Origin: Candidatus Thorarchaeota archaeon
GTDB taxonomy: Archaea > Asgardarchaeota > Heimdallarchaeia > Hodarchaeales > Hodarchaeaceae
Length of the DNA stretch: 32,000 nt
Direction of reading: 5' to 3'
Assembly: GCA_048882505.1 (NCBI GenBank)
Contig: JBHLRO010000002.1
Span: forward strand, 390,001 to 422,000
Shown here: positions 1,526-28,590 of the stretch, piece by piece
Position numbering within the stretch: position 1 is the first letter of the stretch
Layout of the letters: every line of letters begins with the position of its first letter
Notes under the pieces: model-generated
The model's database searches: none
What the model was told of the DNA's origin: nothing
The model's input: only the letters and a program-made list of their open reading frames with translations
Translations under genes and position numbers: made by a program

Positions 1526-2398
1526 GTGGATATTGAAACCATAACAAGAGAATGTCAACTTAACCTTGTCGGCCTGGAGACTGAAATTCGATTAATACTC
1601 GCTGCCATTGAAAACCAAATTGCAGTGGTCATTGAGGGAGAATCAGGCACAGGAAAGACGGAACTTGCGAAAACAATAGCAAATGCCTTGCGGCGTCCTT
1701 TTTATCGTGTTGATGGGGATGAAAATCTGACCATCACCCACCTTAGGGGTTGGTTTGACCCTCCCCTTGTCATGCAGTCAGGATTTGGGGAAAAAAGTTT
1801 CATCCCTGGGCCTCTTGTTAAAGCAATGCAAGAAGGAGGTTTTTTTTTCTTTAACGAGGTCAATAGGGCACCCAGTGAGGCAATAAATGGTGTCTTAGCT
1901 GCGATGGATAGGACAGAACGCCAAATAGAGATTCCACAACTATCTCGGATTACGGCTGCCGAAAAATTTTATTCCATATTTACGCTTAATCCTGCTGCCT
2001 ATATTGGTACAAATCCGCTACCAGAAGCATTTTTTGACCGATGTATACGTATCCGATTGGATCATAAAACGGGAGAGGAAGCTAAGCAAATCGTACGCCT
2101 TCGGACTCAGTGTACTGATCATTCCCTCATTGATAAAGCCGTTGAGTTCACTGAACAGACACGGACCTCAGGTATGTTTGAATCAGGGGCCAGTATTCGT
2201 GCAACAATACAGCTCACCCAATTATTAGACCATCAATCCCTGACTCCCAGAAAAACTTTTGCTACCTTAAATGCCGTCTTTTCTAAAAAGGTGAAACCTC
2301 ATCCTGACGAATCTCGATCCGTAGAGGACTGTTTGGAAGTTCTCGCATTGTCAGTTTTTTTTCCAGATGAAAAAAAAAAAGGAAAGAGCAACGGCTAA
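1526..2398 (+). CDS. MoxR/CoxD/CbbQ-family AAA+ ATPase
   Basis: Walker A GESGTGKT, Walker B FFFNEVNR (N replaces the usual D), sensor-1 TLNP, and LPEAFFDR. GTG start preceded by GGAGTGA at 6 nt. Confidence 0.92.
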   Translation: MDIETITRECQLNLVGLETEIRLILAAIENQIAVVIEGESGTGKTELAKTIANALRRPFYRVDGDENLTITHLRGWFDPPLVMQSGFGEKSFIPGPLVKAMQEGGFFFFNEVNRAPSEAINGVLAAMDRTERQIEIPQLSRITAAEKFYSIFTLNPAAYIGTNPLPEAFFDRCIRIRLDHKTGEEAKQIVRLRTQCTDHSLIDKAVEFTEQTRTSGMFESGASIRATIQLTQLLDHQSLTPRKTFATLNAVFSKKVKPHPDESRSVEDCLEVLALSVFFPDEKKKGKSNG

Positions 2399-2481
2399 AA
2401 TATGCAAAAGCATGGAATGATTCCACGATTTCTGAAAGAAAGTCACAAGATTCACTTCTAGAAAGAATATATGAATATAAA

Positions 2482-3414
2482 TTGCAACAACGGCTGGATT
2501 CTGAAACTTCAATTGAGTTTACGAAGGAGGCTGTGAAACAGCGAAATATACGGGCAATTGAAGTTCTTGCAGCGACTTATCCCAGAGTTATAGCAAATCT
2601 CCTCCCTATTGACCCTGATCACTTGGATCTTATACTTGAATCCAGTTCGCTGGTTTTTCAGCTCCGACCCTATTTTTCACAAGAAGAAAAACAGATTTTA
2701 CTTCGGAAACTTATCCCCGCCCTATATCGGCAAGCTAGGCGTATATTCAAGGAAATTTATAGAAATAAGTATCCAGAAACAAGCCCCTATGATCCAGGCC
2801 GTCCTTGGAACGTAGAAAAAACACTTGAAAACTACCTCCAATCTGGGGATCCATTTTTTACCTATCAACACGTATTATCTATCAGGAGGTTACGCAGTCA
2901 CTATCCCGTTGTCCTTTTAGTAGATAAATCACATTCGGTCTTGCAGTATCTTAGATTAATCATATTAACATCGATCTTGTTGAGTCTCTCGATTGATATC
3001 AAAAATCTCGCCATAATTGGATTTGATGCTCTGCCTGACATTCTAAAAGGTTTTCGGGACTCCTGGATGACTCCAACGGAGATCATACAGCGTTTGATTG
3101 AACTACCATCTGGTGGAAAAACGAACATCTTCCTAGCTGTACAGGCCGCGATGAAGGAGTTTGAAACTCAAATCAGCTCACATAGGACTGTGATTCTAAT
3201 GTCTGATCTTTTGGCCACTAGCGGAAAAGACTTTATACCTCTATTGGCAAAATTTAGAGATGTACGAATTATCATTACCCCTCGGAGGCATCTGTATCAG
3301 CTTACCAAGCCTATCCTTGGACAACTAAGGCGATTAGAAAACATTCGATTATATTATATGCCAGTTGAGGCGCAAAAAATACCTAAAATGCTCGAAAAAT
3401 TACTTTTTAGCTGA
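2482..3414 (+). CDS. VWA (MIDAS) domain protein, CoxE-like partner of the MoxR ATPase; true start uncertain
   Basis: MIDAS DxSxS (VLLVDKSHS), Thr in GGKTNI and Asp in ILMSD. It follows a MoxR gene. The frame stays open upstream to 2371 and no RBS is visible before the TTG at 2482. Confidence 0.88.
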   Translation: MQQRLDSETSIEFTKEAVKQRNIRAIEVLAATYPRVIANLLPIDPDHLDLILESSSLVFQLRPYFSQEEKQILLRKLIPALYRQARRIFKEIYRNKYPETSPYDPGRPWNVEKTLENYLQSGDPFFTYQHVLSIRRLRSHYPVVLLVDKSHSVLQYLRLIILTSILLSLSIDIKNLAIIGFDALPDILKGFRDSWMTPTEIIQRLIELPSGGKTNIFLAVQAAMKEFETQISSHRTVILMSDLLATSGKDFIPLLAKFRDVRIIITPRRHLYQLTKPILGQLRRLENIRLYYMPVEAQKIPKMLEKLLFS

Positions 3415-4941
3415 TCATGCACTCATACCTGGTTGTGGTTTATCATCCGATTCTTTTGACACCTGTACAATGCTTTGGTACTTATCGGGGTAATAAGTCC
3501 TGAAAATCTTCAAAATTCGATCTCGGAATGATGGATGATCCTCATCCCCCTCTGGGATTTGGAACAACTCGTGTTCGAAAACCATTTTTTCCTTTTCTGC
3601 TATTAACGTGCCGATAAATCCTTCTATCTCTTCAGTATCAAGGAATTGATCCGAATCAGAATCGAAATGTCTCCAATCAATGGTTTTTTGTTTTAAGATA
3701 GTGGGTGTAAAATCCTGATTTTGGTCATCTAAGTCCGCAAAATATTTTGCCCTTCGTTGTAGAAGTGTCGGTACGGCGCGTGTTATTAATTGGTTCCGCA
3801 TTTCCCTATCCAATTCAATTCCATAATTTTTCACCAGTTGATCGAGTTTCTCCTCCAAAAAAAGACGAGGGGCGATTTCACGTGCAACATCTTCATCAAG
3901 CTGGGTTTTAGGGAACCGTTGGTAAATCCCTCGAGTAAAGGAAGATGAGGGTTTTTTTTCATCAGAGAGACTTTCCAGCCATTCAATTTCTCGTGTTAAG
4001 ACTTGCATGGCTTCACTTCGTTGTCCAAGGTGAATGAGGGCATTGATTAAAACCTCGGCTCCCATCAATTGAGCGGAAAAAAAATCCGCCAGATATTCAG
4101 CCTGATGATTTGCTGCATAAAGGAACTTCAAAGTAAAGCGAGTCACAATCGCAACAACAAGGTAGATAAGGACAAGAAACAGCAATCGTTCAATAGCAGC
4201 CAAAATATTAAATGAATCAAAAACCGCATTTAAAATTCCAGTGAAAATCTGGAGATATATGAAAACATATGCAAGATTAAGGAAGAGACGCGGGATAGAA
4301 AGTACCAATCGAACCAAACTGTCACCATGACTCACGTGGGCAAGTTCATGGGCAATAACAGCTTCAATTTCGGGATCGCTAAGTATTTCCAAGACATTAG
4401 TATTTAACACCAGATAAGGTCGTCGGAAAAATGGGATTGGAAGCAGATCGAGACTAAACGCGTTGGGAACCGCTTTGCGGTACACAAAAATCTTGGTTAC
4501 CTTGATTTTCACTCTCGCAGCCGTATGTGATACAAGTTTAAGCGTCCGGTCAACAGTAGGGGCCTCTTCGGCTGCATAAGCTGGGCCATACAATGGCTCA
4601 GGATAAATTTGTACCATGTTTTTATTGGAAAAAACTATTGATACTAAAAAAGCCAACAAGAGTAGCTGCAATCCTGCAGTTAATAGGACTAAGACGGCTG
4701 TTTGCTGAAGGTCAGCAAATGGATTGATCGATATGAAGAACCCTAGTATTCGAGGGTTTCCTTCTATTCCAATTAATGATGGTAGGGGTTTCCATGGCTC
4801 TGACTTAGGTTCCTGACTGATGGATATCCAGCTGACAATGATAATCTGAGCAAAAGTGAGAATGAAGAAGGCGGCTGCATTTATTACCCGGAAAAACCTC
4901 GCTCTGTTCATTCCAAATTCCTTTTGATCCAACGCTTTCAC
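3415..4941 (-). CDS. M48 (HtpX-like) membrane zinc metalloprotease with a large C-terminal insertion carrying an EF-hand-like loop
   Basis: Two N-terminal TM segments, NAF, HELAH zinc motif, two further TMs, third ligand in NHQAEYLAD, and terminal HPSFRDRI. The insertion contains FDSDSDQFLDTEEI. Confidence 0.9.
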   Translation of the reverse strand: MKALDQKEFGMNRARFFRVINAAAFFILTFAQIIIVSWISISQEPKSEPWKPLPSLIGIEGNPRILGFFISINPFADLQQTAVLVLLTAGLQLLLLAFLVSIVFSNKNMVQIYPEPLYGPAYAAEEAPTVDRTLKLVSHTAARVKIKVTKIFVYRKAVPNAFSLDLLPIPFFRRPYLVLNTNVLEILSDPEIEAVIAHELAHVSHGDSLVRLVLSIPRLFLNLAYVFIYLQIFTGILNAVFDSFNILAAIERLLFLVLIYLVVAIVTRFTLKFLYAANHQAEYLADFFSAQLMGAEVLINALIHLGQRSEAMQVLTREIEWLESLSDEKKPSSSFTRGIYQRFPKTQLDEDVAREIAPRLFLEEKLDQLVKNYGIELDREMRNQLITRAVPTLLQRRAKYFADLDDQNQDFTPTILKQKTIDWRHFDSDSDQFLDTEEIEGFIGTLIAEKEKMVFEHELFQIPEGDEDHPSFRDRILKIFRTYYPDKYQSIVQVSKESDDKPQPGMSA

Positions 4942-5064
4942 CCTCTTATTTCCAAAAACGGGATTGCCGTGATTTATACATGCATGTTCTGAACTAAAAA
5001 CTGTTCCCCTTAAATTATTATGCCTTTGGTTCCAGTGAAATATCAGTCGGATATGGGTTGATGT

Positions 5065-7857
5065 TCACCAATATCCTCCAAGATTCTTAAACCTGGGGAC
5101 TCTTTTTGCGAGGAAAATACGGATTTCATCAGTAACAATAAGTAAACTTGCGATAGAGATGACTATTATCCAATCGCCGATCCCAAGACCTGTAGTTTCG
5201 AATATAGGTTGAAAAATTGGAAGATACATAATTATTAGGTGGAGTCCGATCGAACTAAAAACCGCTAATAATAGGAATGGATTTCGAATTAACTCGCGAC
5301 CAAATAACGAATGTTCTTCCTTTCGGATTTGCAATGCCATTACCATCTGAAACATGATCAGTAGGGTGAATGCGGCAGTTCGGGACGTAAGAAGAGCATC
5401 AGTATCAGGTACCTGGCTAGAGGCTAAATGTGGTGTCAAATACAAAAAGAAAATGAAAAGAGTGCCCAAACCTATCGCTATTCCTGAATATAGGATGAAG
5501 TAGATGGACTTTCGAGTTAAAATCGATTCTCTAGGGTCTCGAGGTTGTCGTATCATTATATCAGAGTCAGGGGGGTCAACGCCCATTGCCAACGCTGGCA
5601 AGCCATCTGTTACCAGATTTACCCAGAGGATCTGGATAGCCAGCAATGGAAGCGCGGGTTGTCCAAATATTATGGTAGTCAACAACATGCCAAAGAACAT
5701 CACCGCAATTTCGCCTGCGTTACATGACAGAAGGTACAGAATAAATTTCCGCATGTTGTCATAAATGGTGCGGCCCTCCTGTATCGCCCGAACTATCGTT
5801 GAAAAATCATCATCCGCCAATACCATATCAGAGGCCTCTTTCGATACATCTGTCCCAGATATTCCCATTGCCACTCCAATATCGGCTCTTTTTAACGCTG
5901 GAGCATCATTAACTCCATCTCCTGTCATAGCCACGACTTGGTTATTTGATTTTAACGCAGATATTAGTTTGAGCTTATGTTCAGGTGAGACACGAGCAAA
6001 TACATTAATATCCAAGACCGATTTTGAAAGCTGGTCATCGCTCATTTCCGCCAATTGAGCTCCTTCTATATACTTTGCAGAGTCTTGAGATTCGATTAAA
6101 CCGATTTCTATTGCTATTGCAAGCGCCGTTTTAAGATGGTCCCCTGTAATCATTAATGGCCGAATTCCTGCAATTTTACACGTGTCAATAGCATCTTTAG
6201 TTCCCTCACGTGGAGGATCCATAATGGCAACTGATCCCACATAGATCAATCTCGATTCAATCTCTTCTGTATCCTCTGATAATATTTCGCGATCGGCCAG
6301 ATCTGGTTCCAGTGTCTTATATGCCATGCCTAACATTCTATATCCTTTTATAGCGTTCTGCTGTTCTTTTTCTTCTAGATGCTTGCGCACAGTGTCGTTT
6401 AGTGCTCTGATCTCCCCGTTAGAAAGATAGTATTCACATAGATCAATGAGGATCTCTGGGGCGCCCTTTGTAAAAACTAAAAACTCATTATTGTCATTTT
6501 TTACCACTACACTCATACGCTTTGAGGTTGAATCGAAAGGTATCTCGTAAAGTCGTTCGAACTGTGGATAAACCTCATATGTGGCTCCGAGCTTGAGAAG
6601 GGCAAGCTCAGTAGGATCACCAATGTCCGCATCTATTCGAATCTCCGATGTGGAAGGACTTGAGACGCTCACGGATTTCTGGCTTGAATTCGCCAACTGT
6701 GCATTATTGCACTCAACACCGATCGAAAGGATTTTTCTTATCGAATCATCAAGAGCCAAAGAGTCTGAAATATCATATTCTGCATCGACTGTAAGAATTC
6801 TACGTGCTGTCATCTCGTTTTTTGTTAGAGTACCAGTTTTGTCTGAACAGATAACTGTTGTAGACCCAAGAGTTTCAACGGAGGGGAGACGACGAATAAT
6901 GGCATTTTTTTTGCTCATTCTCTGGACTCCGAGAGCTAATGCTAATGTTACAACAGCAGGGAGACCCTCAGGAACAGCAGCGACAGCAAGTCCAACAGCG
7001 ACAATAAACATTTCGATAACCTCTTGATTTAAGAGTATACCGAAAATAAATATTACAAAACAAATCGTTAGACTCCCAATCCCAATCCACTTTCCTAATT
7101 CTTCCATTCTCAGCTGTAAGGGCGTTTCTTCCTCCTGAGTTACAAGAAGGCCAAGTGCGATTCGACCGAATTCCGTACGCATTCCTGTTTGCGTGACGAT
7201 AGCATGAGCTCGTCCTCGTGTAATATTGGTGCCAGAAAACACACAATTCCAACGCTCAGCAACAGGAGTCTGGGGTTTTATGTCGGAACCAACCTTCTTC
7301 ACTACTGGATAGGATTCCCCAGTTAATGCTGATTCATCTACTCGTAAAGAATGAGCTTGAATTAGCCGTGAATCCGCGGGAACTTTATCCCCTTCTTCTA
7401 GAACTATTACGTCTCCAGGTACAAGAGTATTAGCATCGATTCGTAGTTTCGTTCCATCTCTGATGACGGTCGTTGTGGGTGCTGCCATTAATTTAAGTGC
7501 TTCAATGGCTCTTTCCGCTTTATATTCCTGTATAAATCCAAATAGAGCGTTAAAAAGGACAATTGTTGATATTGCCAACGCATCAATCGCATATTCGATC
7601 TGTTCTCCTGGATCTGTTGAGAGTGCTCCTATTAAAAGTGAAATCAATAGTGCCAACAAGAGAATAATCACTAAAGGATCCGTGAACTGCTCTAAAAAAA
7701 GGAATATGGGGTGCTTCTTTTTCGTTTTTTCAAGTTCATTGGGCCCATATTCATCGAGTCGCCGTTGTGCTTCGGTCTCAGGGATTCCAAGCTCAGGATT
7801 CGTTGATAATTTTTTGATTAAGGATTGAAGATCTTCAGCGTGCCACTGGGTACTCAT
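5065..7857 (-). CDS. P-type ATPase, subclass 2A (SERCA/PMR1-like, probably Ca2+-transporting)
   Basis: TGES, PEGL, DKTGTLT phosphorylation site, KGAPE, DPPR, TGD and GDGVND. M5 YLLSCNAGE and M6 [11 protein letters not shown] match SERCA Ca2+ ligands. M8 has Gln (FQM) where SERCA has Glu908. Confidence 0.95.
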
Positions 7858-26772: not shown

Positions 26773-28590
26773 CTAAAACGAAAATCCACTGATCACCATA
26801 AAGATTCCCAGCAGGATGACAACCCACATGAATAGCCAATTCAGCCCAGACCACCTGTTATGAAATTCTTGACCATCCTCGGTAAGAATTTTCCAAACTT
26901 GAAGTATCGGGGTCGGTTGACGATGATACCAGCCGTATGCTCTGACATTTCGGCCTTGAAGTTCCCCCGCTCGAAACAGTGCAAAGAAGAACGACATAAG
27001 ACCTCCGATAATGGGGATGGCTGGCGAATAATCCAAGGTGATTATCCCCGTATTATCTTGGATAACAAGATCCTCACTGAGGAAATATCCAGGTGTTCCC
27101 CGTCCTACCACTTTTCCCTCAATCACAGCTTTCTTACCTCGTAACGGCGATGCCTCATAATATCCATTCTTGGTTTGGTCCGTCAAACAATGAGTCACCG
27201 TTACTGTAGGATCACTCAACCGTACCTTAGGATACTTCTCCCGACGACGCCATTTCCAAATGAGTCCACAGAGAATTAAGGCAAGTCCTGCACCAATGGT
27301 TCCATTCATGAAGGAGATTCCAGCTGGTCTTACTATTTCACCCAGGAAGAAACCCAATATTGGTAAAATGAAGAAAAGAAAGGGAGCAATATATTGGAGA
27401 AATATATCGATGATAAATTCATCCCAAAGTGATTCTGGAAGTTTTACCTTTCCAACGCCTGGAAATTCAGGAGCCTGACCCTTTTCTTCCTGCATACGAT
27501 TCAGGGCAATTATTCTTTTGGCTGGAAGAGGATGGGTGGATGACAGCTCTAGGAATCGACCCCATGGGTTTGAAAGATCCCATTGGGCCGCCTTGGCTAC
27601 ATTTTCGTCATTCAGTTCTATTCCACGGCCGTATGCGGAATAAGCCAAATTCTTGGCACCTGCAACATCAAAGATACCCAATGAACGCATTCCGGTGTAG
27701 AAGGCAGATTGTTTAGAGGCTTGTCTTCTGGCTGTCGGGGAAAGAGATTCGTCATGTATCCGTTCGGCTACTGCCGCGTCTTCTTTCACCATTCCGTAAG
27801 CAATTTTCACTAACGCCCTCGATAATGCACCAGGCTGCCCTGTAGCTTCGGCCGAAAAACTATCGGCATAAAATTCTCGTACTCGAGACAGAAACAGTAC
27901 TATATAGCGTGAAAGAACATAAGCTATGAGCGCCCCTACTGCCGCAACAGCAGCAATTACCCCCACACTTGCGGCGTCATCACTCCCGCGGCGTCCGCCC
28001 CTGCTTTGTGTACTGTATCTAGCAAAAGTCCATAGACCCTGATAGAATGAATATGCAATCAGAGGAATTGCCGCAGCTACGGTCATCCAGATAAAATCTC
28101 TGTGGACAATGTGTCCAGATTCGTGTGCAACTACTGCGATTTGCTCCTCCTCTGTCAGATAGTTTAAAATTCCCTCCGTAATTGCCATACGAGCTCTTTT
28201 TTTAGTGTGGCCATAAACAAATGCGTTAGGATTGTTATCATGGATGATGGCCACCCATTTGAGGGAAAAATTATTCAATTCCATTTCGTGCCGGAGATAA
28301 CCAACAAGATGGGGAGGAAGATCTTCAACCTGGTATTTGGTCGCATTAAATACCCAACCAATCGTAAAATCCATGATCCATGGAGATATCAAATACTGGA
28401 TAAAAACTACAACAAGTGCGAATAGGATAGGTAATAAAATAATCATGTACTCGGATCCAGGTGGAAACAACCCAGGTACGGTTAGTGAAGCCACTGCAAT
28501 TAGGGCCATACCCAAAATAAATATAAGCCCCCATAGCGCGGACATGATGAATAGACTACGGATGTACAAGTTCCTTGGCATTTTTGACAC
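26773..28590 (-). CDS. htpX: Long-form HtpX (M48) zinc metalloprotease with C-terminal membrane-anchored OB-like domain
   Basis: PNAFVYG, HESGH, SRVREFYAD and STHPLPAKRI, followed by two TMs, a beta-rich domain (EGKVVG...DLVIQDNTGIITLDY) and a terminal TM. Confidence 0.9.
   Translation of the reverse strand: MSKMPRNLYIRSLFIMSALWGLIFILGMALIAVASLTVPGLFPPGSEYMIILLPILFALVVVFIQYLISPWIMDFTIGWVFNATKYQVEDLPPHLVGYLRHEMELNNFSLKWVAIIHDNNPNAFVYGHTKKRARMAITEGILNYLTEEEQIAVVAHESGHIVHRDFIWMTVAAAIPLIAYSFYQGLWTFARYSTQSRGGRRGSDDAASVGVIAAVAAVGALIAYVLSRYIVLFLSRVREFYADSFSAEATGQPGALSRALVKIAYGMVKEDAAVAERIHDESLSPTARRQASKQSAFYTGMRSLGIFDVAGAKNLAYSAYGRGIELNDENVAKAAQWDLSNPWGRFLELSSTHPLPAKRIIALNRMQEEKGQAPEFPGVGKVKLPESLWDEFIIDIFLQYIAPFLFFILPILGFFLGEIVRPAGISFMNGTIGAGLALILCGLIWKWRRREKYPKVRLSDPTVTVTHCLTDQTKNGYYEASPLRGKKAVIEGKVVGRGTPGYFLSEDLVIQDNTGIITLDYSPAIPIIGGLMSFFFALFRAGELQGRNVRAYGWYHRQPTPILQVWKILTEDGQEFHNRWSGLNWLFMWVVILLGIFMVISGFSF

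Follow-up and report, generated by a model that had tools for sequence, protein, structure and literature searches.

Can a membrane-anchored protease of an archaeon be placed under the control of cytosolic calcium? This question is raised by a gene located at positions 3415-4941 (minus strand) of a 32,000-nucleotide stretch of DNA from a Candidatus Thorarchaeota archaeon of the order Hodarchaeales (GenBank assembly GCA_048882505.1, contig JBHLRO010000002.1, positions 390,001 to 422,000 of the forward strand), the whole of which we call the window. The open reading frame and its translation indicate an HtpX-like zinc metalloprotease of the M48 family, 508 amino acids long when read from a GTG codon at 4941, which carries a putative EF-hand in an insertion between two of its catalytic motifs. 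The gene for a P2-type (P2A-like) Ca2+-ATPase lies beside it. A preliminary description of the window had joined both genes in one circuit, a calcium-gated proteolysis module in which an influx of Ca2+ would switch the protease on, the signal being reset by the pump encoded beside it. To our knowledge, calcium signalling in Asgard archaea is essentially uncharted. Here we examine the hand, its position within the protease and the proposed link to the pump; features are on the minus strand unless otherwise stated.

Results

The insertion carries an EF-hand

In the AlphaFold2 models an α-helical insertion, predicted to be cytoplasmic, extends between the helix of the third zinc ligand and the HPx4R motif of the protease (amino acids 305-466, 3544-4029). 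Its last element is the EF-hand, whose loop DSDSDQFLDTEE (amino acids 427-438, 3628-3663) has Asp at positions 1, 3, 5 and 9, Leu at 8, Glu at 12 and, at position 6, Gln for Gly. The loop sequence DSDSDQFLDTEEI fits the 12-residue PROSITE pattern PS00018, which calls for oxygen ligands at positions 1, 3, 5, 9 and 12 and for position 8 to be hydrophobic. Across the 1.48 million six-frame residues of the genome the pattern matches 18 times, compared with 4-8 times in shuffled sequences, and a chance match within a protein of 508 residues is therefore unlikely. Most of the other genomic matches are DxDxDG repeats in large proteins. The pattern alone is weak evidence, and conservation is the stronger argument.

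Residues D427, L434 and E438 are invariant in about 45 orthologues (57-94% identity) as well as in five relatives at about 29% identity. By running a profile of the insertion (A2, amino acids 305-466) on 400 Asgard genomes, EF-hand loops were extracted from 49 genomes belonging to six Asgard families. In these loops position 1 is always Asp, position 12 always Glu and position 8 Leu; position 3 is Asp or Asn, position 5 Ser, Asn or Asp, and position 9 Asp, Glu, Ser, Asn, Thr or Gln, while positions 2, 4, 10 and 11 are free to vary. The ligand positions are kept in bacterial relatives too. Such conserved ligand positions amid freely changing neighbours are the pattern expected of selection on metal ligands, and the conservation of the acidic positions on which the preliminary description had made its reading depend is thus borne out. 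Among 50 aligned representative clusters the canonical Gly at position 6 is found in 17, as in DFDHSGALDREEL, and the Asp at position 1 is lost in three (P0089, P0096 and P0112).

A comparison of the A2 profile with all PDB sequences returned calbindin D28k at an E value of 2.3e-11 (best single stretch 2.2e-4), followed by secretagogin, calmodulin, CaBP1 and oncomodulin. The matches at profile positions 99-157, equivalent to amino acids 403-461, are exclusively to EF-hand proteins. When the members of the family were scanned singly, 18 of 46 touched the Pfam model EF-hand_7, and the best of them reached E values of 1.7e-5 with EF-hand_6, 8.1e-5 with EF-hand_1 and 1.7e-4 with EF-hand_7. With the protein by itself as query, scans of Pfam and NCBIfam yielded no EF-hand family at E ≤ 0.1; the signal surfaced only with the family profile and the scan of each member.

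The predicted secondary structure agrees with this assignment. Short helices at amino acids 406-411, 413-418 and 423-426 lead into the loop at 427-438, from which an exiting helix of 13 residues runs through 436-448, and the confidence over amino acids 421-450 is high (pLDDT 92-94). The AlphaFold2 model and the profile matches in the PDB concur in a single helix-loop-helix at amino acids 406-448 (3598-3726). Of the two things that the preliminary description had sought in a model, a probable helix-loop-helix is seen at the level of secondary structure, and no partner hand was detected. EF-hands normally work in pairs; here the place at which one would look for a second loop is taken up by the HP motif of the protease itself. 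Pairing of the lone hand with its twin in a homodimer was considered and gained no support, as the predicted interface is formed by a different part of the insertion, the hairpin of amino acids 362-393 described below. Taken together, the pattern, the profile and the predicted secondary structure support the presence of one genuine EF-hand in the insertion, as the preliminary description had proposed.

The Pfam models EF-hand_7 and EF-hand_6 found no match in this genome, which is 94.5% complete, and the family's own EF-hand model recovered the gene studied here and no second copy. Concerning the remaining acidic repeats of the genome, a 1378-residue open frame at the end of contig C28 contains eight of the DxDxDG type (for example DTDGDGLLDG) that match PS00018. 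They look more like extracellular calcium-binding repeats than like EF-hands.

The hand precedes the active-site plug of an M48 protease

Membership of the M48 family is clear from Pfam, where Peptidase_M48 (PF01435) scores 56.3 bits over amino acids 136-305 with a cut-off of 20.3. The best NCBIfam matches are HtpX models, at 30-55 bits with cut-offs of 245-422; the top equivalog model, NF003965, gives 55.2 bits where 245 are required. Scoring so far under these cut-offs, the protein is not an HtpX equivalog. The best folds for the whole protease model are ZMPSTE24/Ste24 and the HtpX domain.

The motifs that define M48 enzymes (HExxH, a downstream Glu as third zinc ligand and HPx4R; PMC7950410) are all present. 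The zinc-binding and catalytic motif HELAH occupies amino acids 198-202 (4336-4350), and all of 46 relatives retain its H198, E199 and H202. The third ligand, E282, is provided by EYLAD (amino acids 282-286, 4084-4098), in which E282, L284 and D286 do not vary. The plug motif H469-P-S-F-R-D-R475 (3517-3537), contained in HPSFRDRI, has H469, P470, R473 and R475 invariant in the same 46 relatives. HPx4R has been described as an autoinhibitory active-site plug, whose histidine in BepA provides the fourth ligand of the zinc and has to move before catalysis can take place; the BepA plug sits at the position of the substrate, and the motif is conserved throughout PF01435, including HtpX (PMC7950410).

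The EF-hand ends about 20 residues ahead of this plug, its exiting helix terminating at amino acid 448. The linker that follows is the least confident part of the C-terminal domain, with a pLDDT of 62 at amino acids 461-470 and below 50 at 464-466.

Four hydrophobic segments were located with Kyte-Doolittle windows, at amino acids 23-41 (4819-4875), 82-100 (4642-4698), 212-237 (4231-4308) and 253-271 (4129-4185), and the helices of the AlphaFold2 model agree with them. Lys and Arg account for 5 of 21 residues at the N-terminus, compared with 3 of 41 and 1 of 17 in the two odd loops, and on this basis the N-terminus, the catalytic domain and the C-terminal domain were placed in the cytoplasm. 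Hydropathy and the positive-inside rule thus suggest a four-segment, HtpX-like topology in which the catalytic and C-terminal domains, the latter with the hand, would be cytoplasmic.

Size, fold and predicted dimer of the insertion

The spacing of the Glu ligand and the HP motif is 187 residues in this protein, 62 in a paralogue of classical HtpX size and 114 in the second M48 protein of the window. It follows from these spacings that the insertion amounts to about 125 residues when compared with classical HtpX and to about 73 when compared with the second M48. The insertion of more than 100 residues that the preliminary description reported, as something missing from the second protein, holds for the first comparison and shrinks in the other, where the second M48 has an extra segment of its own, about 50 residues long and without likeness to an EF-hand.

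The full-length AlphaFold2 model, built on an alignment of 46 rows, has a mean pLDDT of 82.9 and a pTM of 0.82. When the insertion was modelled by itself and used in fold searches, there was no clear match in the PDB with Foldseek (best E value 1.0), none in the wide search with VIA-align (best Z 7.0, over residues 1-66 only) and none in the ESM Atlas (TM ≤ 0.42). As a whole the insertion has no recognised fold in these searches, which barely probed the EF-hand part and do not imply a new fold. A feature-based search of a protein atlas gave scores of up to 0.86, which we take as leads only.

A helical hairpin of the insertion (amino acids 362-393, residues 58-89 of the insertion, 3763-3858) forms the interface of a predicted homodimer. 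The prediction scored 0.53, the best control being 0.00, in a job that differed from the tool's calibration in that it used the isolated insertion with an alignment of its own and with Ca2+ riding along; among proteins of solved structure, this mark is attained by 20 of the 30 that are pairs of one chain and by 1 of the 23 that are single chains. The separate runs agreed in at least 62% of their contacts, and the partner had a pLDDT of at least 58.

Distribution of the EF-hand M48 proteins

The insertion occurs at the same place in about 55 clusters (50% identity) among 1.84 billion representative proteins, and all of these are M48 proteins of 420-500 amino acids. In 80 generic M48 loci from diverse prokaryotes, collected with a pattern of the HExxH region, none with the insertion was seen. 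The most similar public proteins carry the names Heimdallarchaeota or Hodarchaeales, and Hodarchaeales, Thorarchaeota and Odinarchaeota are among the sources given for public members of the family.

Across the 400 Asgard genomes the EF-hand protease is single-copy and patchy, being present in 101. It was found in 20 of 21 genomes of its own family, in both genomes of one sister family and in the only genome of another, in 11 of 12 and 2 of 12 genomes of two further families of the same class, and in 64 of 89 genomes of a family group from another class; the insertion profile did not find it in Asgard families of 31, 19, 14 and 135 genomes. Furthermore, a GC-rich group with the canonical Gly at position 6 sits on contigs of clearly bacterial gene content, as judged from genes for an ECF sigma factor, a multi-S1 protein, DUF1501 and Pkinase-WD40. 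The family is thus not exclusively archaeal.

Outside the genus of the window the gene has other recurrent neighbours. A tandem pair of TldD/PmbA metallopeptidase genes stands beside it in all four loci of one Heimdall-class family and in 7 of 12 Thor-like loci, and a Ras/Roc-type small GTPase gene lies upstream on the same strand in 8 of the 12 Thor-like loci and nearby in 3 of the 4 Heimdall-class ones. The loci concerned are L042-L045 (for example L042:10045-12830) and L047-L056 (for example L049:9853-12662, L049:12711-13265, L003:7501-7920). Recurring in two distant lineages, TldD/PmbA and the GTPase are better candidates for a functional link than the pump.

The neighbouring pump

The ATPase gene (5065-7857) encodes 930 amino acids and was assigned with Pfam and NCBIfam. 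Its product contains all the Pfam domains of P-type ATPases and the core motifs TGES (amino acid 179), PEGLP (296-300, 6958-6972, including E297) and DKTGT (339-343, 6829-6843). The M5 ligands N713/E716 (5710-5721) and the M6 ligands N747/T750/D751 (5605-5619) are also in place. Together with E297 in M4 we take these to be the counterparts of E309, N768/E771 and N796/T799/D800 of SERCA, and the retention of SERCA-type ligands noted in the preliminary description is confirmed. The PMR1-type and SERCA-type NCBIfam models score 727 and 692.8, both short of their equivalog cut-offs (798.3 and 703.4), while the PMCA-type model passes (519.5 compared with 507.05) with a score lower than either. The best relatives in the PDB, LMCA1, SPCA1 and SERCA, align over the full length with E values from 6.5e-168 to 1e-155. 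These comparisons point to a P2A-type Ca2+ pump, its ion specificity being deduced from them.

The arrangement of the two genes, with the protease reading frame 123 nt downstream of that of the ATPase and on the same strand, is as first described, and the pump adjoins the protease in 21 of 21 genomes of the genus. This adjacency carries little weight, because the whole block is syntenic within the genus, over some ten genes that include Dus, an Obg-like GTPase, the ATPase, the M48 protease, the VWA and MoxR genes, a 650-residue coiled-coil protein, a 190-residue protein and HypF. Outside the genus we inspected the flanks of the protease gene, to a distance of at most 8 kb either way, in 20 genomes that represent five other Asgard families; no ATPase match was found in any of the 20 loci, 19 of which are informative upstream, nor in nine further short loci or three bacterial contigs. 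Pump homologues (E ≤ 1e-100) are present in 374 of the 400 Asgard genomes and in 89 of the 90 of high quality. The pump family being nearly universal, its co-occurrence with the EF-hand protease says nothing, and we discarded it as evidence for a module. The pump thus looks like an ordinary Asgard calcium exporter that is a chance neighbour rather than a dedicated partner, and the link between the two genes like a genus-level accident of gene order; a two-gene module is not supported. Most genomes of the genus have a second P2-type ATPase paralogue elsewhere in the genome, about 59% identical to that of the window (for example G067:C1:1994294-1997047).

Start and promoter of the protease gene

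The true start of the protease is likely the TTG codon at 4932, which lies 5 nt past a Shine-Dalgarno-like site, GAGGGTGA, at 4938-4945. The GTG at 4941 falls within this site. The TTG is favoured by comparison with the orthologues, which begin [A/T]TG GTT TCA and are preceded by a GGTG-type ribosome-binding site.

The spacer between the two genes (4942-5064, 123 nt) contains the TATA-like element ATTTAAGG at 5008-5015, a run of five T at 4996-5000 and TATAAAT at 4972-4978. Within the genus the spacer measures 100-230 nt, and about 15 of 21 members have a TATA-like box of the TTTAAG type 62-73 nt 5' of the start; here ATTTAAGG is 83 nt 5' of the start, and 74 nt from the GTG at 4941. The TATAAAT that the preliminary description had suggested as a separate promoter is indeed present on the minus strand; it is not conserved, and the element whose position is conserved is the other, TTTAAG-type box. 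From this box the protease gene looks to be separately promoted.

Further genes of the window and its relatives

On the other side, genes for a MoxR-type AAA+ protein (AAA_3/AAA_5) and a CoxE-like VWA protein (1526-3414, plus strand) converge tail-to-tail on the protease gene, with a gap of zero (3414/3415). On the contig of a bacterial relative, P0076, an 866-residue VWA protein is encoded directly upstream of the EF-hand M48 gene, behind an ECF sigma factor gene, and a MoxR gene lies 9 kb away; the presence of VWA and MoxR genes there may be a coincidence.

The genome contains six M48 paralogues. The second one in the window (26773-28590, minus strand) has 605 residues, with the motifs HESGH, EFYAD and HPLPAKRI, and extends past the HP motif by about 240 residues at its C-terminus, with more hydrophobic stretches.

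Discussion

We propose that the protein belongs to a conserved HtpX-like subfamily of M48 proteases in which the EF-hand brings the active-site plug under the control of Ca2+, the pump being an ordinary neighbour. On the sequence evidence collected here we would give this reading an even chance. Control of the plug by calcium is preferred because the hand ends only about 20 residues before HPx4R, and control through a movement of the plug is proposed because this motif is shared with BepA and conserved in PF01435. In this mechanism the EF-hand would bind cytoplasmic Ca2+, the flexible linker of about 20 residues would tether the hand to the plug histidine, and binding of the ion would shift the position or the mobility of the plug, thereby setting the activity of the protease. 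In addition, the insertion may serve to join two protomers, by way of its helical hairpin. Whatever goes beyond the sequence anatomy in this mechanism we infer. A more specific version, in which Ca2+ draws the histidine of HPx4R away from the zinc (or towards it), would make this enzyme the first prokaryotic membrane protease to be gated by cytosolic Ca2+; we consider this version tentative, and rather doubtful as it stands.

Several observations weigh against calcium control of the plug. The Gly at position 6 of the loop is Gln here and Gln, Tyr, Arg, Ser or Phe across the genus; PS00018 tolerates Gln, and the replacement could lower the affinity or alter the geometry of the loop. By itself the protein stays under the Pfam cut-offs for EF-hands (EF-hand_7, E value 0.11, 13.3 bits with a cut-off of 30). 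The entering helix of the model is short and kinked, and no second hand was detected, as both the EF-hand_7 alignment (positions 8-32 of 67) and those with PDB proteins match only one. The predicted dimer interface leaves the EF-hand out, and the unusual design of that job, mentioned above, must be counted here as well. Finally, the plug mechanism has been demonstrated for the periplasmic BepA and not for HtpX-type enzymes.

The main rival is a constitutive structural site, where Ca2+ (or Mg2+) would do no more than keep the folded insertion, or the dimer, stable in a housekeeping protease for the quality control of membrane proteins, one that plays no part in calcium signalling. The conservation of the ligands would be equally expected for such a site, and a single unpaired hand, packed on other helices at high pLDDT, is typical of it. 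Moreover, a genome with no match to EF-hand_7 or EF-hand_6 and without a second copy of the family's own hand gives little sign of a signalling network built on EF-hands. However, free cytoplasmic Ca2+ is normally sub-micromolar, as established for bacteria and assumed for archaea, so that a hand of canonical affinity would not be constitutively filled, and a structural site leaves the position of the hand, just upstream of a mobile plug and joined to it by a flexible linker, hard to explain. We therefore regard a structural site as unlikely, though as an explanation to be taken seriously. A lesser rival is a degenerate hand, which in this genus would have ceased to bind metal upon the loss of Gly at position 6 and would serve as a scaffold in a substrate-binding, lid or dimerisation domain. 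The residues that replace this Gly speak for it, particularly Tyr and Phe, which fall outside PS00018, as do the weak Pfam scores of the single protein, the location of the predicted dimer interface in another part of the insertion and the three clusters from which the Asp at position 1 has gone. A scaffold would not need to keep its ligands; yet D1, D/N3, S/N/D5 and E12 are invariant in 21 of 21 members of the genus at 57-94% identity, with free change at the neighbouring positions of the loop, and the Gln of this protein is allowed by the pattern. We find a non-binding hand very improbable.

The circuit first proposed for this locus shares the sensor with our reading and adds the pump. The two genes are indeed close and on the same strand, the ATPase keeps SERCA-type ligands and has Ca2+ pumps as its best solved relatives, and the adjacency persists in every genome of the genus at protease identities of 57-94%. 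On the other hand, the roughly ten flanking genes are equally syntenic there, and neither the 19 informative loci of five other families nor the three bacterial contigs have an ATPase within the distance inspected. The pump occurs in far more Asgard genomes than the EF-hand protease (374 compared with 101 of 400), a position-conserved TATA-like box occupies the spacer, and the neighbours that recur elsewhere are the TldD/PmbA pair and the Ras-like GTPase. With its adjacency limited to one genus and a TATA-like box of its own for the protease, the pump-protease module has to be abandoned as a general proposal, and we consider it improbable even at this locus.

Known systems help to define what is new in a hand placed before the plug. 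HtpX, a protease of bacteria and archaea that acts in membrane-protein quality control (MEROPS M48B), shares the HExxH motif, the downstream Glu ligand, HPx4R and the four hydrophobic segments, of which the second and the third flank the catalytic domain; it differs by lacking the roughly 125 additional residues, EF-hand included, that are inserted here after the Glu ligand and ahead of the plug. Escherichia coli BepA has the same plug motif, with His-246 as the plug residue (PMC7950410). BepA is soluble, periplasmic and regulated through its TPR domain and the BAM complex, whereas the protease described here would be membrane-anchored and face the cytoplasm, and its candidate regulator is an EF-hand fused upstream of the plug. 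With the calpains, Ca2+-activated proteases under the control of attached penta-EF-hand domains, the analogy is functional only, since calpains are soluble cysteine proteases of another fold with five paired hands, and no homology was found.

Fusions of EF-hands to membrane-associated signalling or enzymatic domains are known from prokaryotes. Schaffer, Iyer, Burroughs and Aravind (2020) described calmodulin-like dyads combined with 7TM, Tic110-like, haem oxygenase, NOS, NADPH oxidase, sulfatase and thioredoxin domains, and derived the eukaryotic EF-hand toolkit from bacteria; M48 goes unmentioned in that work (PMC7016017). In contrast to those fusions, the hand reported here is single and lies inside the protease domain instead of being appended to it. 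A full-text search of the literature for EF-hands together with HtpX or M48 found nothing relevant, and public records label the proteins of this family only as 'M48 family metallopeptidase'. The finding thus consists of a known protease family and a known sensor motif in a new position, one that is mechanistically suggestive.

An answer to how the plug of M48 enzymes (HtpX, Oma1, Ste24, BepA) is released is just beginning to take shape in the case of BepA, in which a protein complex acts as the trigger. A sensor for a small ion fused beside the plug would provide a simple test system for the whole M48 family, in which it would suffice to add or to chelate Ca2+. If calcium control of the plug is true, this subfamily would illustrate, ready-made by nature, the release of a plug that is universal among M48 proteases. 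Hodarchaeales are the closest known archaeal relatives of eukaryotes, and the switch would then be found in this order, in an organism for which no further EF-hand protein could be detected, and would show directly that Asgard archaea make use of Ca2+-dependent regulation.

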